Shown here: in pieces, positions 2,459-36,470 of the stretch | How the letters are laid out: each line of letters starts with the position of its first letter | Numbering within the stretch: the first letter of the stretch is position 1 | Assembly (NCBI GenBank): GCA_000004695.1 | Contig: CM000151.3 | Location: forward strand, 2,656,001 to 2,720,000 | Source of the DNA: Dictyostelium discoideum | Lineage: Eukaryota | Direction of reading: 5' to 3' | DNA length: 64,000 nucleotides | Made by a program: the position numbers and the translations under genes | Notes under the pieces: generated by a model | What the model saw: only the letters and a program-made list of their open reading frames with translations | What the model was told of the DNA's origin: nothing | Database searches by the model: none

Positions 2459-3793
2459 TTATAGTTTTATTTGGGGTAGATTTTTATCTACCTTTTGAAG
2501 TTTCTGGTTTATTTTGTCTTCTAACTGATCTTTACTTTGTTCGTTGTGTTGTTGGTCTTGTGTGTTTGTGGGGTTTTTTGATTTACTGATTTGTTTTAGA
2601 ATTTCCTTGTTGAAGTTGTCTATATCTTCATCCATTTTTGTTTTTATGCTTTTTTGTCCATATTCACCCAATTTTGGTTTGACTGGTGTTTTGTTGGTCC
2701 TGTTTGTTTTGTCTTGTTGTTTGTTTTTTGGTGTGTTTAACAATTTACTTGGTGAATCGATAATTTTCGATGGTGTACCATAGGTTGGGCTGAAACTCAT
2801 GATATGTTTTATTGGAGAGGAGAAGAACCATTGATTTGAAGGGATTGAAAGTGGGAATTCTATTTTTCTTATTGCATCAGTGTTTGGGCTGGTGAAGTCG
2901 AAGATATCATTTACCTCTCTAAGTTTTTCTTCCGTTGTTAGTCTCTTTGTTTCGCCGTGTTGTTTTATTGGTGTATTGTATGGAGATGGTGGTTCAATAG
3001 GTTTTTCTGATTTTGTTTTAATTTCTTGATTGTTTATCGATTGGGTATTGATCTCATTCTCTATTCTTGTTAGTTCATCTACGTTTTCTAGTGATGCATC
3101 TATTACCTTTTGAGCTGTATCATCTAGGGCCATAAATGTTTTATCATTAGATGAGGAGGTGATTGGTGGGATAATGATTGTTCTTTTTCCTTGTTTTGGT
3201 ATTTGTTCTGATGTAGATTGTGGTTGTTGTTCATCTGATTGTTTTTTATTTTTGTTTTCTTCTTGATTTTCTGGTAATGAGGTTTGATCTCTCCATCCTT
3301 TGTTGGAGTGACCAATTAATGTTAGATTGTCTAGTTCAATGATAGTGTCATATTCTTCTACGACTCTTTTCACTGTTTTGATAATTAGAGTTTCGCCTTT
3401 AATTTCAGATTTAATTAGTTTACATCCTTCATTTTCTATTACCCATTCTATTTCTGTGAGTGATTTATACCAATCGAAATCCGTATACATATTTTTTGGT
3501 CTTAGAGTGGTTATAAATTGTCCTTTTAATTCTGCATCGAACATATTTACAAAATAGATTACTGTACTAATACTGTCTGTGAGAATTTTGAATGTATTAT
3601 TACTTTTGATTAAAACATCTTTTTTGTCCAAACTTTTTTCTAAATCTTTTTTTATTTTATCGTCTGGTTCGTGATTGATGTTTATGACGTATTTGAATTG
3701 TTTTTTTTTTAATTGAGTTTTATCCACAATTTCGCTTATTTTTTGTAGGCATTTGTGTTGCTTAATATTTGTGGTGTTGTTTGTGATTTTCAT
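2459..3793 (-). CDS. TRE5-A-like ORF1 protein (444 aa, ~51 kDa)
   Basis: An intact 444-codon minus-strand ORF sits immediately 5' of ORF2. Its size matches the TRE5-A ORF1 protein. It is Lys/Asn/Gln-rich and has no cellular homologue I recognise. Confidence 0.7.
   Translation of the reverse strand: MKITNNTTNIKQHKCLQKISEIVDKTQLKKKQFKYVININHEPDDKIKKDLEKSLDKKDVLIKSNNTFKILTDSISTVIYFVNMFDAELKGQFITTLRPKNMYTDFDWYKSLTEIEWVIENEGCKLIKSEIKGETLIIKTVKRVVEEYDTIIELDNLTLIGHSNKGWRDQTSLPENQEENKNKKQSDEQQPQSTSEQIPKQGKRTIIIPPITSSSNDKTFMALDDTAQKVIDASLENVDELTRIENEINTQSINNQEIKTKSEKPIEPPSPYNTPIKQHGETKRLTTEEKLREVNDIFDFTSPNTDAIRKIEFPLSIPSNQWFFSSPIKHIMSFSPTYGTPSKIIDSPSKLLNTPKNKQQDKTNRTNKTPVKPKLGEYGQKSIKTKMDEDIDNFNKEILKQISKSKNPTNTQDQQHNEQSKDQLEDKINQKLQKVDKNLPQIKL

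Positions 3794-3869: not shown

Positions 3870-3912
<43 letters not shown>
3843..3912. repeat. poly(T) homopolymer of about 70 nt (oligo(A) on the element strand) between the module array and ORF1
   Basis: Seen directly in the sequence. In the other seven module copies the corresponding junction is only ttgtttttt. Confidence 0.9.
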
Positions 3913-3915
<3 letters not shown>

Positions 3916-5535
3916 TCTTTTTTATATGAAAAATGAAATAATCAAAAAAAGAGATTGTTGTTGTTGTTTGTTTTTTTTCGATCTGATTATTTTTTGCTTT
4001 TTTTTGAAAATTTTGCTACGCAAAATTCTCAAAACGAAACAAATAATAAATTACAATAAAGTAAAAAGATGGCTTTTTAAGATAGTTTATTTATTTATTT
4101 ATTTGTTTTTTAAGTCTTTTTTATATGAAAAATGAAATAATCAAAAAAAGAGATTGTTGTTGTTGTTTGTTTTTTTTCGATCTGATTATTTTTTGCTTTT
4201 TTTTGAAAATTTTGCTACGCAAAATTCTCAAAACGAAACAAATAATAAATTACAATAAAGCAAAAAGATGGCTTTTTAAGATATTTTATTTATTTATTTA
4301 TTTGTTTTTTAAGTCTTTCTTATTTGAAAAATGAAATAATCAAAAAAAGAGATTGTTGTTGTTGTTTGTTTTTTTTCGATCTGATTATTTTTTGCTTTTT
4401 TTTGAAAATTTTGCTACGCAAAATTCTCAAAACGAAACAAATAATAAATTACAATAAAGTAAAAAGATGGCTTTTTAAGATAGTTTATTTATTTATTTAT
4501 TTGTTTTTTAAGTCTTTTTTATATGAAAAATGAAATAATCAAAAAAAGAGATTGTTGTTGTTGTTTGTTTTTTTTCGATCTGATTATTTTTTGCTTTTTT
4601 TTGAAAATTTTGCTACGCAAAATTCTCAAAACGAAACAAATAATAAATTACAATAAAGTAAAAAGATGGCTTTTTAAGATAGTTTATTTATTTATTTATT
4701 TGTTTTTTAAGTCTTTTTTATATGAAAAATGAAATAATCAAAAAAAGAGATTGTTGTTGTTGTTTGTTTTTTTTCGATCTGATTATTTTTTGCTTTTTTT
4801 TGAAAATTTTGCTACGCAAAATTCTCAAAACGAAACAAATAATAAATTACAATAAAGTAAAAAGATGGCTTTTTAAGATAGTTTATTTATTTATTTATTT
4901 GTTTTTTAAGTCTTTTTTATATGAAAAATGAAATAATCAAAAAAAGAGATTGTTGTTGTTGTTTGTTTTTTTTCGATCTGATTATTTTTTGCTTTTTTTT
5001 GAAAATTTTGCTACGCAAAATTCTCAAAACGAAACAAATAATAAATTACAATAAAGTAAAAAGATGGCTTTTTAAGATAGTTTATTTATTTATTTATTTG
5101 TTTTTTAAGTCTTTTTTATATGAAAAATGAAATAATCAAAAAAAGAGATTGTTGTTGTTGTTTGTTTTTTTTCGATCTGATTATTTTTTGCTTTTTTTTG
5201 AAAATTTTGCTACGCAAAATTCTCAAAACGAAACAAATAATAAATTACAATAAAGTAAAAAGATGGCTTTTTAAGATAGTTTATTTATTTATTTATTTGT
5301 TTTTTAAGTCTTTTTTATATGAAAAATGAAATAATCAAAAAAAGAGATTGTTGTTGTTGTTTGTTTTTTTTCGATCTGATTATTTTTTGCTTTTTTTTGA
5401 AAATTTTGCTACGCAAAATTCTCAAAACGAAACAAATAATAAATTACAATAAAGTAAAAAGATGGCTTTTTAAGATAGTTTATTTATTTATTTATTTGTT
5501 TTTTAAGTCTTTTTTATATGAAAAATGAAATAATC
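3913..5535. repeat. Tandem array of a 199-bp module, 8 full copies plus a 5'-truncated ninth (TRE5-A A-module-like)
   Basis: Units start at 3926, 4125, 4324, 4523, 4722, 4921, 5120 and 5319, and all are identical except copy 2, which has about 4 substitutions. Each unit carries a spurious 69-aa ORF (MKNEIIKKRDCCCC...). The array ends at ...aaataatc at 5535. Confidence 0.9.
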
Positions 5536-5583: not shown

Positions 5584-5666
5584 GCAAGGGTAGGAAAGTC
5601 TGGTTAAATCCGTGTGACTTAAGATCTCATCCATTCGGTTCGCGAGTTCGAATCTCGCCTCTTGCA
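5584..5666 (+). tRNA. tRNA-Leu(UAA), class II (long variable arm), 83 nt
   Basis: The acceptor stem GCAAGGG/CTCTTGC has one G-U pair. The D-stem has 3 bp. The anticodon loop is CTTAAGA (U33, anticodon TAA, G37), and its stem TGTGA/TCTCA has one U-U mismatch. The T-arm is GCGAG-TTCGAAT-CTCGC. The discriminator is A. Confidence 0.8.
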
Positions 5667-6752: not shown

Positions 6753-6824
6753 GGCTCCTTAGCATAGTGGTATTGCGCTTCCCTAGTAAGGAAGAGGTCA
6801 TGAGTTCGATCCTCATAGGAGCCT
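6753..6824 (+). tRNA. tRNA-Thr(AGU), 72 nt including discriminator
   Basis: The acceptor stem is GGCTCCT/AGGAGCC. The anticodon stem is CTTCC/GGAAG with loop CTAGTAA (anticodon AGT). The T-arm is ATGAG-TTCGATC-CTCAT. A weak ex-B-like GGaTCGAtTCtCC sits at 6851-6864. Confidence 0.85.
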
Positions 6825-6857: not shown

Positions 6858-7075
6858 GATTCTCCAAACAAAAAAACAAACAAACAAAAAAACAAACAAA
6901 CAAACAAAAAAACAAACAAACAAACAAAAAAACAAACAAACAAACAAAAAAACAAACAAACAAAAAAACAAACAAAAAAACTAACAAAAAAACAATCAAA
7001 AAAACAATCAAACAATCAAACAATCAAACAATCAAACAAACCAACCAACAAACAAACAAATTTTAATTAACAAAC
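6858..7075. repeat. A/C microsatellite (ACAAACAAACAAAAAA)n, then (CAATCAAA)n
   Basis: A direct tandem repeat begins just downstream of tRNA-Thr. Antisense reading yields the spurious 65-aa poly-F/L/V ORF 6826-7023. Confidence 0.9.
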
Positions 7076-12506: not shown

Positions 12507-12725
12507 TTTTTTTTTTCCAAAATTAAAAAATAATAAAAAACTAATAAAACAACAACAAATTTTAGTTAGTATACAAATCTGCCAATCAAGCCATTAATGG
12601 TACAACTACGTTATGATTGGTACCACTTATGGTTAAAATAAAATTTCGGTGTAATAAAACCAAAAATATTTATTATTTAATTTAATTTTTTTTTATTTAA
12701 TTTAATTTTTAATTGGTGTTTCATC

Positions 12726-15271
12726 TCATCTGTCTTTAAAAGATTTTAAACCACAAATTAATTTATGATCACTTTGCCAATCAACAGTTTGACAATCACG
12801 ATCACAATAGTTTGTTGTACATTTTGAAGTGCAAATTTTACCACAATTTGCGCATAGCGATGGAGTTGTGGGGCCTTGAATGATCCAATCACAATCGTGA
12901 ATTTTTTGATTATCAAATTTAGAACGACATGTTGAAAAGGCAATAAACGAGTATTTACCACCAACTTTCAAGCTTGAAGGATCGATACATTGACCACCTT
13001 CGACAGCGAATCTACATGGGAAACCTTGGACGTCCCATAAGAGTAATTCGATATCATCACCTCTGACCAACGGTTGAGCGGCGAGTGTACTTGGAAAAAA
13101 CATTTTTCAAAGACAGTTCTAATGTCTGGCATTAGATCAGCCAATGGGTTTGTACCACCTTGATCAAATGAAGACTGAGCAACAAGTTTATAATCCTTCA
13201 TTGTGATTCTTGGATTCTCTGGAAACCCCTTTGAGTAGCCACCATACTCTTTATGTCTAATGAGTTTATCATTTTCATGGTCTTTTAATAATTGACGAAA
13301 CTCTTTAATCACTTGAATTTCTCTAGCAGACTTTTTAACCTTTGCTTCTTGAGCGTTTGCAAATACAAATGGTACTTTTTGATCGAGATCAACCTTTACC
13401 TTTCTTCCCATTTAGATGTGGCTTTCTTTGAGAGATTAGCCAAGATTTGACTTGCTTTACTTGAGCCTTTGATTGAAGCAACCTCTAAATATGTTAAACC
13501 TAATTTACCATTTTTAGTGACATTGATACCTTTGCCATGACCATCAATTTGTAAATACAATTTACCCAATTCAAATGTAGCTTGAACTATATTATTTTCA
13601 CCATCATTATATTCCAAAGATTTTTGAAAATTCTCCAATGCTTTTGAAATGGCAGATGATTCAGATGATTTCAATAATAATAATCTACCTAAATTTAAAT
13701 TTGCTTCACCAATACCAGTATTCATTTTATAACCAGTTGACATTGCAATTGATAAGTTTGTAGCTTTTGTATACATTTGCTTTGCCTTTTATAAATTACC
13801 TTGACTACGATAATAATCACCCATGGGTGCAACGAATACATCAGCAAACACCGTTTCATTTAAACCTTTACTTTTGATTAACATTTTCTCAGCATTTTTT
13901 AAATCTTGATAAAAGAATTTACTTGTCTGTGCAGCTGGTTCATATTCCAATGATGGATTCTTATCGAAGTATTCCCTTCTTTGCTTTACATTTACTTTAA
14001 TCAATGCATCACTAACCAAAATCAATTTCAGGCTCTGATATCTCTGCAGCAAGTTTAACAGTATCCATTTCTGGTAAAGTACCCGCCCTTGTCATATTGG
14101 TAAAACGTTATCAGAATCTATCGGCTCGGTAAATGCTGATTTCTGTTTTGTACCCATTACTGACCTGACGCTATCCTTATACTTTTTATTATTTGGCTCA
14201 AGATCCAAAGCTAATTTATAAAAGTAGGCTGCCTTCTTTGATTTTTCCAATAGTGTAAAACACTTTGCAATCACAGCATACCCCTCTGCCCTGCATGGAC
14301 GAATGTAAAGTAATCTTTCAATATCAGATTTCGCAATATTTAAATGCTGTTGCATTCTAGTCTTCACCTTTTCACACCACTGTAACCAACATTTTCCTCT
14401 TGAAAGGTATAGATCAGAAATGAAATTCTCTGTCAAACCTCTATAATCCAATGCTAATGAATTGAATTGCTGCTTGCCCATTACCTGCTTTAATCATTTC
14501 ATCAGCTTGATACTTATATACCATCGCCTCTGCCATTTCATCTAAATGTGGATAAAGTGGTTTCAACTCCAAATCATCTGAATTATCAGTCCATGAATTA
14601 AGTTGTTTAGTCCAATCTGCAACACTCATAGTTTTATCCAATACAAATATACTCTCAACAACTTTAAGTGTAACTAATTTTAAATGATTCCATGAATTGA
14701 ATTGTTCACTATGTTCACAACCTTCATTACATTTTCTTGATTTTTCAGTTGGTTCTTTATCATTATTTGTATCATAAAATCCCTTTATATATATATATAT
14801 ATATGTTAATACTTGTAATTTTATTATTATTATTAATATTATTATTATTATTTTATATTATATTGTATATATGAATATATACCTCATAAAAATGACTACC
14901 ACATGCTAAAATAATTTCATTTTCATTTTCTAATTGACTTGATGGTATATTTTTCCATGGATGACTAACCTAAACATCAACAAATAGATTGAAATCAAAA
15001 TCAGAAGTACGACCAACTGCTAATTTTTTCATCATTAATTCACTTTTAAGATATCTTAATTTTGTATTTTTAATTAAGAATTCACCTCCAACTGGACCCT
15101 CTTTATATTCTGCATAAGTTTTTTCCCATCTTTCATAAAAAATCTTTCTAAAATTTCTGAATGCTCTATCAGATGAGCCAAACCCTTTAAAAAAAAAAAA
15201 GAAAAAAAAAAAAAAAGAAAAAAAATATTTACTCTGTATTTGAATTTATATTTTTCATCAAGACTAACCAT
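12726..15271 (-). pseudogene. TPR/Sel1-like repeat protein with C-terminal MYND zinc finger, disrupted by at least 2 frameshifts and 3 in-frame stops. Its body has atypical GC-richer composition.
   Basis: Minus-strand ORF segments 14441-14641, 14092-14481, 13789-14052, 13396-13776, 12968-13411 and 12726-13103 abut or overlap without introns. The b/c and c/d segments share a frame but are split by TGA and TAA, and a TAG separates FVDV|VSHPW near 14925. Frameshifts of 1 nt occur near 14460, 13400 and 13100. The C-terminus reads CANCGK..CTSKC..YCDRDCQTVDWQSDHKLIC (MYND). Upstream, AYFYKLALDLEPNN and LGKLYLQIDGHGKGI look TPR/Sel1-like. Codons such as GGC, GCG, CCG, CGG and TCG are frequent (about 38-42% GC against under 30% for typical exons here). 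The 5' exons (15271-15233, 15184-14960, 14882-~14700) are AT-rich with normal 48- and 103-bp introns. Confidence 0.5.
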
Positions 15272-18743: not shown

Positions 18744-21171
18744 AAATAAATCTATGGATTTCATTTTATCAATATTTTTATCATCTCCTAATAAAAGTAA
18801 AAAAGAATTAATTAAAACATTTAAAATGATTTTATACTTGATGGAAAGAGAAATAATAAATTTAAGACAATATAAGGATGAAATTTTAAAAAAGATAACA
18901 ACATTATGTCCATTAGTATCATTATTTAGATTAAAAGATTTAATTAAAGTTATTAAAATAATTAATTGGTTTAATAATAATAATGATAATGATAATTCAA
19001 ATTTAATTAATAATGAATATTCAATTTGTCAATTAAATGCAAAACTTGTTGATCCAACAAATTTTAATAAAAAAATAAATAAATTAAATATTAAAGAATT
19101 ATTAAATATTTATTATAGTAATAGAAAACAACTAGATTTTACTTCAAAACAATTCTTTAATTATTATTATGGTGATGATAATGATAATGATGAAAGTAAT
19201 AAGGAATCTCAAAATTATACTCTTTTTGGAAACTTTTTAAATCAAGTTGATAGACAAGAAAGTGATATAGAATTTAAGCTTACTCAACCTTTACAAAATG
19301 GTGATTTACATTTATTTAGTGATTGGTTATATAATTTTAATAATAAATATGATCATGAATTTTTTAAAACATTATTAGATAAAAATCAACTACTTAAAAA
19401 TGAAAATTCAATATTATTTTCAAATTTTAAAAAACAAGAAGATCAAATTAATTTTTTAATTTCTTGTACTTTAGTAATAAAAGAAATTATTAAAACAAAT
19501 GAAAACTCAAATTTCATTACAAATTTTATTGAATCAAATATTTTGTTTTTATTTTTAGTAAAACATGATTCAGTGGAATTATTTAAACATTTCTCAAATC
19601 AATTCTCTCAAAATGAAAAAGAAGTTGTTTTTTGTTTTCATGATGAATCTCAAGATGAAATACTTGATTTCAATATTTGCAAATATATAAATTCTATTGA
19701 AATGTTAGATTTCATTTATCAAGAATTTCATCATCTTTTTATTTATTCAAAGTATCCAAATTTTTTAAATTTTAAAAATTTAAATTTATTAAAACACTTT
19801 GAAAAATTAATAAATTCATCAAAGAAAAATAAACAACTACAACAACAACTACAACAACAACGACAAATTAAAACTCATTATAAAGAAAAACTTTATTTAA
19901 TTAATTTTAAAGGTAGTTTTAAATTAAATTTTGAAACTTTTAAACATATTGTAGAAAATCCTACAATATATAACTATGGTTCAAAAATTTTAACACCAAT
20001 TATTACTGATTTATACCAAGGTAATAATTGTAATGAAGTTGTATGTTTATTTAAACATATATTCAATACAAATATTTTCGATAGTGAAATGAAATCAAGA
20101 ATGCTACAAGTTTCAAACTACTTTTTAGATTCTGACGAAAAACCAATTTTATTATCAAAGTTTTTTGAATGGTTATATGAAAATAAACATTTTACCCCAC
20201 CAAAAGATGTACCATTCATTAAAAAATCAAGTTTTGGTCCAGGTTTCGCTTCATCATCATCGTCACCATTTGGAGGATCTGGTACTAGTAGTACAGTTGG
20301 ATCAAGGTTTGCTAGTTCAACTTCATCATCATCACCATTTGGAGAATCAGGTACTAACAGTACAGTTGGATCAAGATTTGGCAGTTCAACTTCATCACCA
20401 TTAGAAGGATCAGGTACGAGCAGTACAGTTGGATCAAGATTTGGTAGTTCAACTTCATCATCACCATTAGGGGGATCAGGTACCAGCAGTACAGTTGGAT
20501 CAAGATTTGGTAGTTCAACCTCATCATCACCATCAGGAGGATCAGGTTTTAGTAGTAATACAAATGGACCAATATTTGCTAGTTCAAATGTAATTCCAAA
20601 TCCAACAACCATTTTAAATAGTCTTCCAGATATTATTTGCTTTTATTACTTATCAGGTAAACTTGATGAAATCGATGATGAAATCTTTAATTTTAAAAAC
20701 ACCTATTCTGGAGGTAGGGATATGTTTACTTCATTTTTATATAAACTTGCATATTTTATTGGTAAAAGAGGTGATTTGAAAGCATTATCAACTGTTATTA
20801 GCAGAGCAACAGATAATTTAAAACCATTCCCAAATTCAAATGTTCCTGAATATAATGCTGAGTTTAATTGTATCAGAAATTTCATTTATTCAATTTTGGA
20901 AACAGCTGCTTATAATGGTCAAATCCAAATATTCCAATATTTTCAATATCATCATTGTCATGTTTTGCAAGAAAATGCCATCGAATGGTTTAGAGAAGAT
21001 AAACTTTTAAATTTAATTAGAACCTCTTTAAAAAATGATCATATTGAGATTACTCAAATATTATTATCACATCTCTATCTTTCAAAACACAAGTTTTTAA
21101 ATATTTACTTTAATGATAACATTTTTAAAACCAAGATTTCTTATAATTATTTTTGTGAACTATTTAAATAG
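17521..21171 (+). CDS. Asn-rich protein of unknown function (~1216 aa) with 5 tandem Ser/Gly-rich 21-23-aa repeats near the C-terminus
   Basis: A continuous ORF runs from ATG 17521 with Dictyostelium codon usage and a polyN tract at aa 145-200. The ORF-track start 17380 is upstream non-ATG read-through. Confidence 0.65.
20230..20560 (+). repeat. 5 tandem copies of a 63-69-bp coding repeat (FGSSTSSSPxGGSGTSSTVGSR)
   Basis: The protein-level repeat is visible in the ORF translation. Antisense ORF 20118-20612 is its mirror image and is spurious. Confidence 0.8.
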
Positions 21172-21893
21172 TTTGACAGAAAATATGAAATAAAATAATA
21201 TAAAATAAAATAATATAAAATAAAATAAATAAAATAAATAAAATAAAATAAAATAAAATAAAATAAAATCAAATAAAATCAAATAAATAAAAAAAATAAA
21301 ATTTTAAAATAAAATGATCAATTAATTGAAAGCAATGGGGTTAAATTTTTTTTTTCATTTGTTTATTGTTTATTTTTAGTTACTAGCAAAATGGTTTGCG
21401 TGTTGTGGTATTTCTGAAGTGTGGTCCATGAATGTTCATTTGGGAAAATGGTAATAATATTATAATATTATTATTTTTATTATTATTTTAATTCAAAGTT
21501 TCTCGGAAAAATAAAAATAAAAATTAAATAATGTGTGGCGTTTGTGGGAGTTGAATTTAAAAACAGGAGTAGATTTTATTTTAATTTTAACTTTGCCTAT
21601 CATACACAAACACATTCATACATTGCCTTAACTTATATTGGTTAATTTTACAATTGTAATTGTTTTTTTTTTTTTTATGGGTTTTATTATATTTTTTTTT
21701 TTTTTTATTATTAATAATAAAAAGGTTATTATTTTTTTTTTTTATTTTCTTATTAATAATAAAAAGGAATATTACTTATAATTTAAAAAAGGTAGAAAAA
21801 TAAAACAAGTATACCAGAAAATTTTTAAAAAAAATATATATATTAATAGTTTTTTTAAAAATAAAAGATAAAAAATAAAAAATAATAATAATC

Positions 21894-22085
21894 ATGCTAA
21901 AAGTTTTAATAGCTATTTTAGTGGTAATCTCATTACTTTCAAATTTAAATGCTGTTAATGGACAAAAATTTTATTGTTTTTTAGATTGCATTAAAAAAGA
22001 TAGAAATTGTCGTATGGGAAGATCAGAAGATGCAAATTGTCTTGAATATTTTAAAAAATGTAAAGATGAATGCCATAATAATTAA
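21894..22085 (+). CDS. Candidate small secreted cysteine-rich peptide (63 aa; signal peptide plus a ~40-aa twin-CX3C mature region)
   Basis: The start is a true ATG in AAAATCATGC context. The N-terminus MLKVLIAILVVISLLSNLNAVNG is a canonical signal peptide. The mature part QKFYCFLDCIKKDRNCRMGRSEDANCLEYFKKCKDECHNN has 6 Cys arranged C-x3-C...C...C...C-x3-C. It is an isolated ORF in a 2-kb intergenic stretch. Confidence 0.4.
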   Translation: MLKVLIAILVVISLLSNLNAVNGQKFYCFLDCIKKDRNCRMGRSEDANCLEYFKKCKDECHNN

Positions 22086-22521
22086 TAAACCTGAATTCAA
22101 TTTTATATTTAATATTTTTTTTTTACTTTTAAAATATTTTTATTTTGATTATTTGGAATTTATCTCTCTTCTGCCAATTGTTTTCATTATTATTATTATT
22201 TAATTAATTATTTAAAAAATTATCTAAAATGATACAATAATCTTTTTTTTTTCCACATATATTGGTATTTTTTTATGTATTTTTTTTTTCTTAATTATAA
22301 TTTTATTTTTTTTTCTCCATATAAATCATTTGTTTTTTTGTTTTTGGTTGGCAAAAACTAAATATAAAAAATTTTTACATTTGGTTTGTCCAATTAATTT
22401 TTTAAAAAAATTAAAATAAAAAAAAAAAACGAATAGAAATTTAATAAATGTGGTGGGTGTGAATGTATTTTTTAGTAAAACTTAATTTCATTTACTAGTT
22501 ATATATATTTTTAATTTTTAA

Positions 22522-22552
<31 letters not shown>

Positions 22553-23134
22553 TTTTTTTTTCATGGCTTTGTTGGTGATGTAGTATTATTCAAAAGCATC
22601 AGATCTGTAGTTTATCTAAAATTTTATTGGTTGTAAGGAAATTTATTTAAATTTTTATTTTATTTTATTTATTTATTATTTTAAACCACCCATAACATAA
22701 TTATTAATTTTTTTTTTTAAAAAATTTTTGATTTTATAAACACTACTTTGATAATTTAATAATTAAAATCCCTTTGACCAATATCTTATTTTTTTAAAAG
22801 CAATTTTTTATTTTTTATTTTTATTTTTTATGATCTCTTTTTTGATTTCTTTTATGATTTTATTATTTTAAGATTGCCTAGACAAGATATTTTTTTTTTT
22901 TTTTTTTTTTTTTAATAACAATAATTTAATTTTATTAATTTTAATATGAGCCAAGTATATGAAAATAAATCCAAAAATCCAATTTAAATTCCAGATAAAA
23001 AAGTAAAAAAGGTTTTTTAAAAAATTAAAAAAAAAAAAAAAAAAAAAAATGAAATTTTTTATGAACAAAATGAAATTTTAAATTAAAAAAAAATAATAAT
23101 TAATAATAAAAAAAAAAAAAAAAAAAAAAAAAAA

Positions 23135-25639
23135 ATGAAATTATTATCTCAATTTATTTCTATAATAATTATATTTTTAATAATATTTATAAGTGTAAAT
23201 AATTCTCAACAGCAGCAACAAGAAGAAGATATCATTGCAGAGGAAGAACCAAATGGTATACCAATTAATTTGAATATTATATTAATCGGATTCGATGGTA
23301 ATGGTGCATTCGAATATAATTTACCACCAGAAACCTTAAATGATCTTTTAGTTGAAACCTATCCAATTCATTATGTACATTCAATATTCGATTCAAATTA
23401 TTTAAAACCATATAATAAAGATGATGACAACAACAATGGTAATGCCAATAATAATGATGATATAGAAAAAGATAATATTGGTAAAAGATTAATTTCACAC
23501 TACGATTTAAAATACAATGTAATATCATCAAATAGAATCTCATTAGATTTATATGAACAATTATTGCAAATCAATATGAAACCAATTGAAAGCGCAACTC
23601 CATCACATGATGGTGAAACTCATTTAGTTGAAATTGAAGTTTTAGAATCTTATTTTGATAATGAAATTACAAAGATTAAATCATCATCAACTAACTCAAA
23701 TAAAGATTATAGTATAATATTTATAAATCCATCAAAAGAGAGAATATTAACAGGTAGAGCATTAAATAATAATGATAAAACAGGATTGGGAGAATTTAAA
23801 TATCAGTATAGTAAAAATGGTCAAATCACATCACCATGTTGGATAGGATCATCAAGATTCATTGTTATAGATTTAAGTGCAGGTCCATTGAAATATGGTA
23901 CAACATTACATAAATCATCTGATGAATACTATTCAGAGGGTTCAATTGGCCATGACTCAATACCAAGACTAATTGAATACTTTGTGAAGGATGGCTACAG
24001 CGGCACTTCCATTCAGGGTGCATCACCAATCGAAATCATCTCTCATATGTCTTCTTTGGTGATTACCAGTATTCAAAATGTGTTTTTACAAGATTGCAAA
24101 TTCAATTATGTACCATTATTTCAAAAGATTTTAATACCAATTCTAATTTTCAAAGATTCATCCTCTGTCAATGTCCAAAAGGATTTACTAGATTTAGAAT
24201 TAATTAAAAGACAATCCAAAAAGGTATTCCCATTCTCCACGGTTGAATTTGTATTTGCAGAACATTCAATACATGAACATAAACATATTTCAATGGCATT
24301 TTCAAAATCAATTAAATCTCATTCCTCCTTTGAAATGAATCCAACCAATGGTAAATTCTATTCAGTTAGAAAGAATTATTTAGATAGTAAAGAATTACTA
24401 TTATCACTAAAACAAGAAGATGACATTTTAGCAAGTGGTTTAATTGGTAATGATGTTTCACAAATTCCATTAAGTTTAAAAGTTTCAAATAATAATAATA
24501 ATAATAAAAATAGAAACTCACCAACACAAAAATCAAAAATTTTACCAGTTTATATTTTTGCTTTAACATCATCATCAACAAATAATGATACAAATAATTA
24601 TAATAATTTATTACTTGATAAATATCATTCCTATGCAAGTAATCAAGATGCAATTGTTGTTTTAATGTCAAATCATACATATAATAGTACATTTTATAAA
24701 GGTAATTTACCGGTACAAGTGAATTCACTTTATTCAGGTACAAGAAATATTATTGCTGGTTTAGGTTCATCTCAAGGTTTACTCGGACCAACTTTACATT
24801 ACTCTGAATCTCATAATAGGTTGGTAAATAATTTCTTATGGAGTTTTGGTTCATCACCTTGGAATTTATTCAATGGTCGTTCAAATGATGCTAGTAATGC
24901 CTTCACTGGTGGTAGTGGTGATATCTCTCAAATCTTTATCGATGCAATCATTCGTAATACCATTATAACTTCAATTCAATCATCTGAACATAATTTAAAT
25001 TTAGCATTGAATGAAATCACTAAATTCTCTTCAAAATATTTAATTGATTCATTAGGTTTTGAAATTGAAGATATCTCTTTGAATAAAGGTAATTTCATAA
25101 TTGATAGACTTTATCATACTCCACCTTCGAAATTACCAATTTTAAAATCAATTGTACAAAGATTACATAATGATTTAGAACAAATTACAAATGAAATTAC
25201 AAATCAAATTAAATCAATACCTTCTTATTTAAATTCAAAAGAATTAACATCGTATGTTATTTATTTATTTATTTATTTAATTAATTAAATAATAATAAAA
25301 TTACTAATTATATATTATTATTTTTATAGTTCACAAAAAGATAAAATTTCACAAGATTTGATAATGGTGGCAACTCAAGTTGTTGGATTTTTAGATTATG
25401 TTCATAAAGAGATATCAAATGTTGAAACACAATTACTTTGTTGTGCAATCACTCATGGTAATTCAAATAAATCTGGTGGTTTCTTTGGTAATAATCTAAA
25501 TATAATAGTTGTTGTCGTTGCAATCATTATCTCTGCAATAGTTATTAAAATTGCAAATGAACAAATATCAAATGATAAAAAGCCATTACTTATTAATAGG
25601 AATAGAAATAGAATTAGATCAAAAATAAATACAAATTAA
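23135..25639 (+). CDS. Type I transmembrane glycoprotein of unknown function (~808 aa), 2 exons
   Basis: Model: join(23135..25251, 25330..25639), with a 78-bp intron (donor GTATGT at 25252, acceptor TATAG at 25329, phase 2 consistent). The N-terminal signal peptide is MKLLSQFISIIIIFLIIFISVNN. The second exon encodes the single TM helix IIVVVVAIIISAIVIKI and a short basic tail. Confidence 0.65.
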
Positions 25640-34706: not shown

Positions 34707-36470
34707 TTAAGAGTTTAAATAATTATCCCATTCTTGTTTAAATTGTTGATTTGTTAATAATTCAAAACCTTTTGATTTACTAATCCTTAAGTAACGATTA
34801 AATATCCTAATTCTTAAGATTTGACCTTTAATGGGTGGTAAGAAAACTTCAGGTACAGTTGTTCTTATGAACCAAACTAAAACCCAACCCACACAAATGA
34901 AACCAACTATCCAATAATAATTAACCAAATAAGGATAAGCTGAATGATGACCATAGCCATGATTATTAATTAAATCATTATAGATAAATGAGAAAGCAAT
35001 ACCACCACCAACACCAGCTAATGCCCATGCCGATAAAATTAAACCATGAGTGGCTCCAACATTTTTAGAACCAAACATGTCATTTAAAAATGCTGGTATT
35101 ACACCGAATGAGCCACCATAACAAAGTGTGGAAATCCAAATTAGTCCTATGAAAGCTTCATAGTTTAAATCTTTCATTGCTTTTATTAAGAAACCAACTG
35201 AAAAACATTGAATGGTAAGCATTGCTATATAACATTTCTTTCTACCAAATTTATCACTAACAAAACCAAACATTAATCTACCGAATAAATTGAATGCACC
35301 ATTAACTGATACCACCATAGAACCAACAACTTTACTTTTACCAAACATGTTTTGGCACATATCACTTAATCTTCCAATTGCAACCACTCCAAATATGACA
35401 TTACAGAAAAACATTAAATAAATAATTGTATACTCTGATGATGTAATTGCATCAGATAATAAATAATCTGAAAATTTAGGTTCTTTTTTAGTTTTAATAA
35501 TAACATTTTCAGATGATGATCCAATTTCATTTTGTTGTTGATGTTTTTCTGGTAATTTATCATCAGTGGTTGATTGTGATACTGATGATGAAGATATTTC
35601 ATCATTCTTACAAACTTTATTATTAATATTATTTTTATCTATTGATGATGTCGGTGATTCAGTTCCTTCATTAATATTAGATTCTTCATCTGAGTTTTCT
35701 TTTAATCTATTTTGATCAGAATCTTTACCATTAACTTGAAAATTTGGTGGTGGTGTTCTAAAAATAAATGAAATTGAAAATAATATACCGAAAAATAATG
35801 ACCCCAACACTACGAAATTTAATGCAAGACCAACCCTTGCAATTATTTTTATTGGTATTGAACCAAAAGCAATTGAGCCAGCACCAAATCCACATACAGC
35901 CAAACCCGCTGCTAAACCTCTATGATCCGGAAACCATTTTTGTAATGTTGAAACAGGACCAATGTAACAAATACCCATACCCGAACCACCAAATGCCCCA
36001 TAACCAATATAAACTAGCCAAATTACTTTTGTGTAAATTCCAAGAGCAGTTAAAAAATGACCAGCAACGAATAATGTAGAACCAATATACATTGATTTCA
36101 TAGGACCAATTCTATCCAAAACCGGACCCAATATTGAACAAGCACTACCAAAGAAAAAGAATGCAACATAAAATGTGTAGGGTGCCATTCCTTTATTTTC
36201 ATCACCAAAAATTGCTCCATCCACTGGTTTATTATAAATACTCCATGCATATAATGAACCTACAGTAAATTGTGATAAAATTGCAATTGGAAATAAAATC
36301 CATCTATTAAATTTAACTCTTTTTCCTAATAAATATTTTTCATTTTCAATTTGTTGTTCTGTTTTTTTTTGTGGATTGTTTTTATAATGATTAACAATAA
36401 TTTTTATTATTGGATTGATTTTTTTATTTTTATTATTTTCAGAAGTGTGGTTTTCATCAATTTCATTCAT
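34707..36470 (-). CDS. Major facilitator superfamily transporter (oxalate:formate antiporter / monocarboxylate-transporter-like), 587 aa, single exon
   Basis: A true ATG starts it at 36470. It has about 12 predicted TM segments in two halves split by a hydrophilic Ser/Asn-rich loop, and a GxxxDRxGxR-like motif (VLDRIGPMKS). Confidence 0.7.
   Translation of the reverse strand: MNEIDENHTSENNKNKKINPIIKIIVNHYKNNPQKKTEQQIENEKYLLGKRVKFNRWILFPIAILSQFTVGSLYAWSIYNKPVDGAIFGDENKGMAPYTFYVAFFFFGSACSILGPVLDRIGPMKSMYIGSTLFVAGHFLTALGIYTKVIWLVYIGYGAFGGSGMGICYIGPVSTLQKWFPDHRGLAAGLAVCGFGAGSIAFGSIPIKIIARVGLALNFVVLGSLFFGILFSISFIFRTPPPNFQVNGKDSDQNRLKENSDEESNINEGTESPTSSIDKNNINNKVCKNDEISSSSVSQSTTDDKLPEKHQQQNEIGSSSENVIIKTKKEPKFSDYLLSDAITSSEYTIIYLMFFCNVIFGVVAIGRLSDMCQNMFGKSKVVGSMVVSVNGAFNLFGRLMFGFVSDKFGRKKCYIAMLTIQCFSVGFLIKAMKDLNYEAFIGLIWISTLCYGGSFGVIPAFLNDMFGSKNVGATHGLILSAWALAGVGGGIAFSFIYNDLINNHGYGHHSAYPYLVNYYWIVGFICVGWVLVWFIRTTVPEVFLPPIKGQILRIRIFNRYLRISKSKGFELLTNQQFKQEWDNYLNS

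Follow-up and report, generated by a model that had tools for sequence, protein, structure and literature searches.

DDB_G0273187, a small gene of the beiC/cupC family in Dictyostelium discoideum, encodes a predicted secreted six-cysteine hairpin peptide

The region analysed is a 64,000-nt stretch of Dictyostelium discoideum DNA (contig CM000151.3 of assembly GCA_000004695.1, positions 2,656,001 to 2,720,000), termed here the window, and its subject is a small open reading frame (ORF) located at window positions 21894–22085 on the forward strand. The ORF lies in a spacer of 1963 bp between long ORFs that end at 21171 and start at 23135. Upstream of its ATG the leader is A-rich (…aaaataataataatcATG), and the frame runs for 63 codons to a TAA stop, giving the product MLKVLIAILVVISLLSNLNAVNGQKFYCFLDCIKKDRNCRMGRSEDANCLEYFKKCKDECHNN. 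The six cysteines of the product are residues 28, 32, 39, 49, 56 and 60, with spacings of 3-6-9-6-3, so that the framework is C-x3-C-x6-C-x9-C-x6-C-x3-C. A preliminary description made from the DNA letters had pointed to the A-rich context of the ATG, an N-terminal signal peptide, a six-cysteine arrangement with twin CX3C motifs (CFLDC and CKDEC) and the intergenic position, and all of these are borne out; the predicted signal peptide is hydrophobic over residues 1–14 and conserved over residues 1–23, and the cysteine arrangement is conserved across a family of related peptides. The same description had called the ORF unannotated, which is incorrect. The product exactly matches EAL70564/XP_644490 in the 8.48-Mb chromosome 2 record of strain AX4, and in the AX4 reference the ORF is annotated as DDB_G0273187 and DDB_G0273747 (UniProt Q556X9, 'hypothetical protein'). 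The paired identifiers probably stem from the known duplication on chromosome 2 of AX4. The gene is already in the reference annotation and hence not new. DDB_G0273187 is almost certainly a single-exon protein-coding gene of D. discoideum and a member of the family that includes beiC (also cupC, DDB_G0282455).

The decisive evidence for a gene is homology to this family, not the length of the ORF. In a first-order Markov simulation of the AT-rich spacer an ATG-initiated ORF of at least 63 aa arose in 9–10% of trials, and with a chance probability of ~0.1 the length is not evidence for a gene. The composition is coding-like, with GC contents of 34, 27 and 9% at codon positions 1, 2 and 3 compared with 14% in the flanks. 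By codon log-odds the ORF scores +0.23 bit per codon in its own frame, with negative scores in each of the five alternatives, but it ranks only 15th among the 68 small ORFs of the window. The stop codon (22083–22085, forward strand) overlaps an AATAAA hexamer at 22084–22089, which is weak evidence since AATAAA is common by chance in AT-rich DNA. Rfam (E up to 1) found no RNA family in the spacer around the ORF, so its GC-richer patches are not a known non-coding RNA.

Word-seeded searches with the ORF product found paralogues on chromosomes 2 and 3, with matches of E = 4e-11 to 1e-9, that to DDB_G0273111 having E = 4e-11. The family profile matches the product with E = 6.5e-27. A profile was also run exhaustively against 1.84 billion representative proteins and gave 12 significant hits, all in genomes labelled D. 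discoideum, and a further profile search added DDB_G0292970. The AX4 members are the window gene DDB_G0273187 and DDB_G0273111, DDB_G0273241, DDB_G0273243, DDB_G0273183, DDB_G0273373, DDB_G0281753, DDB_G0281757, DDB_G0282455, DDB_G0293324, DDB_G0293268 and DDB_G0292970. Copies are also present in two divergent lineages labelled D. discoideum (ACTFIR and ACTFIW). Within the 64-kb window tblastn of all 14 members matches the 63-aa ORF alone. The genome scan for paralogues with the same cysteine framework that had been proposed for this ORF is therefore positive, and the family homology upholds the suggestion of a genuine small gene for a (predicted) secreted cysteine-rich peptide in a social amoeba.

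The N-terminus of the family is near-invariant, with the consensus ML[KR]xLIAILVxxSLLSNLNAV, and 20 of the 23 signal-peptide residues of the window gene are identical in DDB_G0273111. Mean identity within the family is 76% over residues 1–23 and 25% over the non-cysteine residues of the mature region. The mature domain is built on the framework C-x3-C-x(6-11)-C-x(7-11)-C-x6-C-x3-C, in which the six cysteines are invariant in the 12 aligned domains. The proteins of beiC (66 aa) and the window gene (63 aa) are homologous, with 46–48% identity over the full length; they have the same signal peptide (MLKFLIAILVIFSLLSNLNAV in beiC against MLKVLIAILVVISLLSNLNAV) and the same six-cysteine framework, and neither has a Pfam domain. 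They differ between C2 and C3, where beiC has a spacing of 10 with a P-N-Y-Y-K segment, whereas the window gene has a spacing of 6 and no such segment. They differ also in that beiC has documented, very high late expression, whereas the identifiers of the window gene occur in none of the lists searched. Four of six family features are found in the window gene; the P-N-Y-x-K segment is missing, and the information on expression comes from partial lists. The window gene, although divergent, is an intact member of the family, which is confined to genomes labelled D. discoideum and whose members share the signal peptide, the cysteine framework and a promoter motif ~50–110 nt upstream of the ATG.

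Outside the family no relatives were found in the databases searched. Pfam gave no credible family for the window protein (up to E = 10) or for 13 family members, a mature-domain profile run against all PDB sequences returned noise only (E of 0.39 or worse), and a scan of JGI metagenomes with the family alignment produced 367 pattern matches with 0 confirmed. None of beiA–beiH is conserved outside taxon group 4 (PMC9117722), which fits the narrow distribution seen here. In a full-text search the family gene identifiers were absent from the main texts of the searchable literature.

Genes of this type seem to be a blind spot for automated annotation. The newer GenBank assembly GCA_054883475.1, from an AX4-like strain, carries the identical ORF at positions 14374–14562 of the corresponding locus (L005), and its annotation has no gene called between the two genes that flank the ORF. 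Exact-protein look-ups with the ORF product and three AX4 paralogues, including beiC, likewise returned no called gene. It had been anticipated that gene finders would miss such small ORFs, and the omission of this unchanged ORF is an example. Since automated annotation overlooks such genes, absence from the newer annotation says nothing against the 63-aa ORF. As a side observation, GCA_054883475.1 is identical to AX4 in an oxalate/formate antiporter and in the two other window proteins compared.

The predicted signal peptide (MLKVLIAILVVISLLSNLNAVNG, residues 1–23; 21894–21962, forward strand) is indicated by hydropathy, family identity, nucleotide identity and the pattern of substitution. 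It has a basic n-region (M-L-K), an h-region VLIAILVVISLL and a polar c-region. The Kyte–Doolittle mean is 3.0–3.5 over residues 1–14, after which the chain is hydrophilic, and the core of 12 residues is too short for a membrane anchor. Compared with the paralogues, the DNA of this region has 81–87% nucleotide identity, with z of ~4–5 against shuffled sequences. Cleavage is predicted to occur in the endoplasmic reticulum, most likely after G23 (between G and Q of AVNGQ), since all five of the closest paralogues keep V at -3 and G or A at -1 of this site. The site proposed in the preliminary description, after A20, is retained as an alternative, and G23 fits the -3/-1 rule at least as well.

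The mature peptide of 40 aa (QKFYCFLDCIKKDRNCRMGRSEDANCLEYFKKCKDECHNN, 21963–22082, forward strand) is hydrophilic; its net charge is close to +2, in a family range of -2 to +5. Its cysteine codons are located at 21975–7, 21987–9, 22008–10, 22038–40, 22059–61 and 22071–3 on the same strand. From the family alignment AlphaFold2 predicts helices at residues 2–11 (containing C1 and C2), 14–17 (C3) and 24–39 (C4 to C6) of the mature peptide, with a mean predicted local distance difference test (pLDDT) score of 78.4. This helix-loop-helix (pLDDT 78) agrees with the helix-hairpin that had been suggested from the cysteine spacing alone; the hairpin is obtained with or without the signal peptide (pLDDT 76–78), and the models agree. 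Fold searches gave generic helical hairpins only, and no specific relative. The cysteines lie at i, i+4 and i+11 in the first helix and at i, i+7 and i+11 in the second, placing them on one face of each helix. With these faces predicted to be opposed, nested pairing would be the simplest arrangement, and from the helical periodicity and the analogy with twin-CX3C proteins we infer disulfides C28–C60, C32–C56 and C39–C49. A secreted helical hairpin with three disulfide bonds is thus the probable, predicted form of the product.

The flanks of the window ORF were compared with those of five other family copies, taken from GCA_054859385.1 (ACTFIR) and GCA_054859355.1 (ACTFIW). The motif TTAAAAAGGTARAA, allowing at most one mismatch, occurs 50–110 nt upstream of the ATG in all six copies, with one other match in ~109 kb of related loci; its background frequency is ~1.3 per 64 kb. 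The window copy, at 21784–21797, has one mismatch. It forms part of a promoter signature at 21784–21850 (forward strand) that comprises TAAAAAAGGTAGAA at -110 from the ATG and a TATA-like ATATTAATAGT at -54. The combination AAAAAGGTARAA-N30-50-ATATTAATAGT has a single occurrence in the window (21786–21850) and 0 in 100 shuffles, and in the ~109 kb of related loci it is found only before three tandem ACTFIR copies and before the same ORF in L005. The TATA-like run atatatatattaatag is followed by seven T (21834–21856, forward strand), and ATATATTAATAGT is unique in the window. We take 21834–21856 to be a TATA box with oligo-dT, the usual layout of a Dictyostelium core promoter, from which transcription may be inferred to start near 21860.

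On the 3′ side a 23-nt block AATTTATCTCTCTTCTGCCAATT (AATTTATCTCTCTTCTKCCAATT) is located at 22157–22179 (forward strand), 72 nt after the stop codon. It is unique in the window at up to two mismatches, is found 0 times in 100 shuffles, and recurs in the corresponding position behind two ACTFIR paralogues (L004 10300–10322 and 11751–11773), with no other occurrences. It is probably a 3′-untranslated or terminator element of the duplicated gene unit. The ORF therefore sits in a complete copy of the family gene unit, with promoter, signal peptide, six-cysteine domain and 3′ element. This claim is limited to discrete motifs because the gapped identity of the AT-rich flanks as a whole is barely above that of shuffled controls (z of 1–2.4), and flank-wide homology was rejected.

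Further elements in the spacer are less informative. Two copies of TTATTAATAATAAAAAGG at 21708–21725 and 21750–21767 (forward strand) form a distal block that aligns with TATAAAAAGGAT upstream of three paralogues; this is low-complexity DNA, and weak evidence by alignment only. GC-richer patches at 21395–21435, 21533–21552 and 22449–22466 contain GTGTGG/GTGGG-type motifs (tgcgtgttgtggtatttctgaagtgtggtcc, aatgtgtggcgtttgtgggag and atgtggtgggtgtgaatg), which we presume to resemble the Dictyostelium G-box/CAE elements of GBF type found in post-aggregative genes. Similar GTGTGG-type motifs are present 420–570 nt upstream of two ACTFIR paralogues. Those 360–475 nt upstream of the window ORF are not collinear with the motifs of the paralogues, and were rejected as a shared element. 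An octamer 'ACCCATAA' at ~22688–22697 (forward strand) was rejected likewise. It resembles what we take to be the Dictyostelium upstream sequence element (DUSE) of small non-coding RNA genes, but is at chance level (~1.5 expected in the window), with no GC-rich RNA ~60 nt downstream and no Rfam match.

The family is under birth-and-death turnover. Among the AX4 members two are pseudogene-like, DDB_G0273243 lacking C5 and C6 and DDB_G0273373 retaining three cysteines only. In ACTFIR three tandem copies are located at L004 10001–12783 (GCA_054859385.1, contig JBTAPF010000020.1). The annotated 129-aa protein ACTFIR_000464 consists of the first of these fused through a false intron to the second, which is frameshifted (L004b); the third, at 12577–12783, is intact, 82% identical to DDB_G0281753, and unannotated. 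Downstream of ACTFIR_000751, at a distance of ~420 bp, is a pseudogene fragment interrupted by an in-frame stop (L001 10626–10727). The ACTFIW copy (L003 11648–11860, GCA_054859355.1) has a 1-nt insertion directly after the ATG (ATG TCT TAA); the annotation rescues it by splicing, making it the final exon of a 117-aa protein whose gene has a 1.5-kb intron.

Divergence of the family between lineages can be set against that of a neighbouring gene. The neighbouring oxalate/formate antiporter is 96–97% identical between AX4 and ACTFIR/ACTFIW, while the closest AX4–ACTFIR pairs of the family have identities of 70% (beiC and ACTFIR_000751) and 82% (DDB_G0281753 and the unannotated ACTFIR copy), where orthology of the pairs is assumed. 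The antiporter is a conserved protein of the major facilitator superfamily (34707–36470, reverse strand), in which ACTFIR and ACTFIW differ from AX4 by 3–4%. For two other proteins of the window neither lineage has a member of at least 90% identity. By these comparisons ACTFIR and ACTFIW look like divergent lineages, and not ordinary strains.

Synonymous (dS) and non-synonymous (dN) divergence was estimated by the method of Nei and Gojobori between family copies for which DNA was available; these are paralogue comparisons with small counts. In the signal-peptide region dS is 0.25–0.36 and dN/dS 0.4–0.5. For the mature region of the window copy compared with its paralogues dS is 0.5–1.1 and dN/dS 0.8–1.3, and for the least-saturated tandem pair the values are 0.28 and 1.5. 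The mature-region ratio is thus ~1 or more despite six invariant cysteines, and no ratio is statistically different from 1. The preliminary description had proposed that dN/dS of about 1 would count against a gene. The value is indeed ~1 for the mature region, and the test is not cleanly applicable to comparisons of paralogues with a fixed cysteine scaffold. A fixed scaffold combined with freely changing surface residues is the pattern of diversifying secreted peptides.

The expression of paralogues was taken from published supplementary tables, which cover only part of the transcriptome. In their Table S6 Kin et al. (2018, PMC6198379) give DDB_G0282455 as a cup-specific marker under the names cupC and, after renaming, beiC, and they cite Chen et al. 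(2017) for beiC as a late cup-cell marker. In transcripts per million (TPM), the tabulated values for DDB_G0282455 are 8.8 at hr20, 356 at hr24, 978 in cup, 57 in spore, 17,637 in stalk and 0.4 in vegetative cells; the corresponding values are 107, 234, 1,115, 22, 23,900 and 0.09 for DDB_G0293268, 4.1, 296, 93, 1.9, 692 and 0 for DDB_G0281757, and 32, 30, 0.9, 0.1, 123 and 0 for DDB_G0281753 (PMC6198379). DDB_G0273373 has 11 TPM in stalk (PMC6198379). In k-means file 5 of the same paper four family rows were assigned to the Stalk sheet, since the neighbouring rows all peak in the Stalk column, with the column header taken from the first sheet. In the lists of Rosengarten et al. (2015, PMC4403905) UP_Hr20_gradual includes DDB_G0293268 and UP_Hr24_gradual includes, by column count, DDB_G0282455 and DDB_G0273111; DDB_G0281753, DDB_G0273183 and DDB_G0273373 appear in other differential lists.

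In these tables DDB_G0282455, DDB_G0293268 and DDB_G0281757 show late stalk/cup expression at 20–24 h, as does DDB_G0281753 with some earlier expression. No family member occurs in the supplementary tables searched from bacterial-response and infection RNA-seq papers. As far as the tables extend, paralogue expression points to terminal stalk/cup differentiation (20–24 h) and not to bacterial feeding. By analogy the window copy may be expressed late in stalk/cup cells too, a plausible extension for which the balance falls slightly on the negative side. The searchable papers use beiC as a marker only, and the words 'cysteine' and 'signal peptide' are absent from the main text of PMC6198379.

We propose that the gene would be switched on like its measured paralogues during late culmination (20–24 h), in the sterile stalk/cup lineage. 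The signal peptide would be removed in the endoplasmic reticulum, likely after G23, and the 40-residue product would fold as an antiparallel helix-loop-helix with three nested disulfides, of which C39–C49 would close the variable tip loop of 9 residues. After secretion into the fruiting body's extracellular space, the peptide would act in bulk as a stable, protease-resistant binding peptide, with the cysteine scaffold presenting its fast-changing surface and loop residues to variable targets, which would most plausibly be microbial or proteolytic. Bulk extracellular binding is favoured over a receptor signal because of the high paralogue transcript levels, the fast-changing exposed residues and the gene turnover. 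Taken as a whole (gene, family, secreted hairpin and extracellular action in the late fruiting body), the proposal is evenly poised between right and wrong. A function in defence or inhibition, rather than as matrix or signal, is put forward tentatively, as somewhat less likely than not. It is more speculative still, and unlikely as it stands, that the beiC family is a rapidly diversifying arsenal of three-disulfide hairpin peptides, released in bulk by the terminally differentiating, sterile stalk/cup cells to shield fruiting body and spores against microbes or microbial proteases. If that were true it would amount to chemical immunity in a social amoeba in which soma protects germline, using a scaffold convergent with the plant alpha-hairpinins, and TTAAAAAGGTARAA would be a cis-regulatory switch of the late programme.

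Several observations weigh against this proposal, and some of them would fit its main rival for the window copy, that the gene is a silent or decaying duplicate of a beiC-type gene, unexpressed or useless, and intact only because too little time has passed. DDB_G0273187/DDB_G0273747 is in none of the supplementary lists searched, in which six paralogues are present. With 6 residues between C2 and C3 it has the shortest such spacing of the family, where 9–11 is otherwise seen. Alone among the full-length members it has a gap of four residues here (KKDRN----C), a unique deletion that takes away the family-conserved P-[ND]-[YF]-x-K segment; most full-length members have this segment, but it is not universal, DDB_G0273241 also lacking the proline. 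Neither ACTFIR nor ACTFIW showed an orthologue of the window copy, but their annotations miss family members and the result is uninformative. The family is rich in pseudogenes (DDB_G0273243, DDB_G0273373, the L001 fragment, L004b and L003), and the mature-region dN/dS of 0.8–1.3 relative to paralogues, being near 1, cannot separate diversifying selection from relaxed constraint. For the proposed action on microbes, a net charge as modest as +2 speaks against a classical cationic antimicrobial or pore-forming peptide. Decay is nevertheless the unlikely explanation, if one to be taken seriously. The 63 codons, the six cysteines and the signal peptide are all intact, in a genome in which a single mutation would turn many codons into a stop, and the gene keeps the 3′ block and, upstream, both the promoter motif and the TATA-like element. 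The lists in question are partial, containing differentially expressed or cell-type-specific genes only, so that absence from them is weak evidence.

Accepting an expressed gene, its peptide could instead be a receptor-mediated secreted signal, passing from stalk/cup cells to spores or other cells in terminal differentiation. It is small, predicted to be secreted and disulfide stabilised, its paralogues are expressed during spore maturation, and prestalk-to-spore peptide signalling exists in D. discoideum, e.g. the spore differentiation factor (SDF) peptides. Yet the paralogue transcript levels are far above the needs of a signal, a surface facing a receptor should be conserved where the non-cysteine identity is ~25% with quick divergence between lineages, and the many paralogues and frequent pseudogenes also count against signalling, which we consider highly improbable. 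The main functional alternative is a structural component of the matrix of stalk tube, cup or sorus, acting in mechanics or cross-linking. Paralogue transcripts make up 1.8–2.4% of stalk-preparation mRNA, a level often reached by structural products made in bulk; among the highly expressed genes of stalk and spore, many code for matrix proteins with signal peptides, in families with extensive gain and loss (PMC9117722), and the spore mass is mechanically supported by cup cells (PMC8808424). On the other hand the proteins have no match to the Dicty_CTDC repeat or a cellulose-binding domain, the even number of cysteines is set for internal pairing and leaves no obvious free thiol for cross-links, and a soluble, highly charged hairpin of 40 residues would be an unusual building block, so that a matrix role is improbable. 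Finally, a misannotated chance ORF in an AT-rich spacer would be compatible with the simulated frequency of such ORFs (9–10%) and with the codon-score rank (15th of 68), but is effectively refuted by the homology to at least 12 paralogues with invariant cysteines and a conserved signal peptide (E down to 1e-27), by the conservation of promoter and 3′ block at fixed distances, and by the codon-position GC of 34/27/9%. The preferred reading thus remains an extracellular hairpin peptide of the late fruiting body.

What is new here is the recognition of the family, which is not so described in the searchable literature, and its link to the beiC cup marker; the family includes two of the most abundant transcripts of the stalk preparation. 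Added to this are the predicted six-cysteine hairpin architecture, the conserved 5′ cassette of promoter motif and signal peptide, and a candidate cis-element. There is also a practical warning, in that a recent automated annotation appears to overlook the ORF.

Some other features of the window were observed. The downstream neighbour of the ORF, at 23135–25288 (forward strand), has an N-terminus resembling a signal peptide, together with a DUF7906 domain (E = 3e-13); as a single ORF it has 717 aa compared with 808 aa in the newer annotation, so that it must have at least one intron. Towards the start of the window a 444-aa ORF (2459–3793, reverse strand) encodes one of 17 near-identical D. 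discoideum proteins, from several chromosomes, that cluster at 90% identity. It is adjoined by a tandem array at 3887–5535 with 8.3 copies of a 199-bp unit, 99% identical, which ends 48 nt before a gene for tRNA-Leu(UAA) (5584–5666, forward strand). The layout of 2459–5583 matches what we take to be a TRE5-type retrotransposon targeted to tRNA genes, with a multiplied 5′ A-module and inserted ~48 bp upstream of the tRNA gene. A tRNA-Thr(AGU) gene follows at 6753–6824 (forward strand), and after the tRNA genes there is a (CAAACAAA)n microsatellite of ~24 copies (6865–7060).

A number of known peptide families were compared with the window peptide. Small Tim proteins (PF02953) are twin-CX3C hairpins of the mitochondrial intermembrane space that have two nested disulfides and no signal for the endoplasmic reticulum, and are oxidised by the Mia40 relay. 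The window peptide has a hydrophobic N-terminal signal and gives no Pfam match to zf-Tim10_DDP up to E = 10, and this assignment was rejected. The saposin-like peptides (amoebapore/Apl), which likewise have six cysteines, were rejected also: there is no Pfam hit among 13 members, the mature peptide has 40 aa compared with ~80 residues in SapB, and the cysteine spacing differs from that generally known for SapB. For the 24-residue Dicty_CTDC matrix repeat of EcmA/EcmB type (PF00526) there is no Pfam match for any member.

Toxin and defence superfamilies of the conotoxin type combine a conserved signal peptide with a hypervariable mature peptide on a fixed cysteine framework. The beiC family is similar in having a signal-peptide dS of 0.25–0.36, such that even synonymous sites are conserved, with a mature-region dS of 0.5–1.9 and dN/dS of ~1 or above, and also in its invariant cysteines and its many paralogues and pseudogenes. 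It differs in that organism, fold and cysteine framework are unrelated, and in having no pro-region.

The closest structural parallel is with the alpha-hairpinins (EcAMP1, VhTI, BWI-2c, Tk-AMP-X2 and Luffin P1), plant peptides that are antifungal or inhibit trypsin by means of a rigid loop (PMC7191063). These are secreted peptides of ~35–50 residues in which two antiparallel helices are joined by a loop, each helix carrying a CXXXC motif (PMC7191063), and the same is predicted here, with CFLDC on helix 2–11 and CKDEC on helix 24–39 of the AlphaFold2 model. The alpha-hairpinins pair outer with outer and inner with inner cysteines and have a hydrophilic surface, as does the window peptide if its pairing is as deduced above. 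They have four cysteines in two disulfides (C1–C4 and C2–C3), whereas the window peptide has six, with a predicted third pair closing the loop, and they are cut from multi-module or vicilin-type precursors, whereas the amoebozoan precursor is a single domain of 63 aa. As there is no similarity to PDB sequences or Pfam families, the resemblance is either convergent or too distant to detect. By analogy of architecture, the alpha-hairpinins provide the best model for how the peptide might act.

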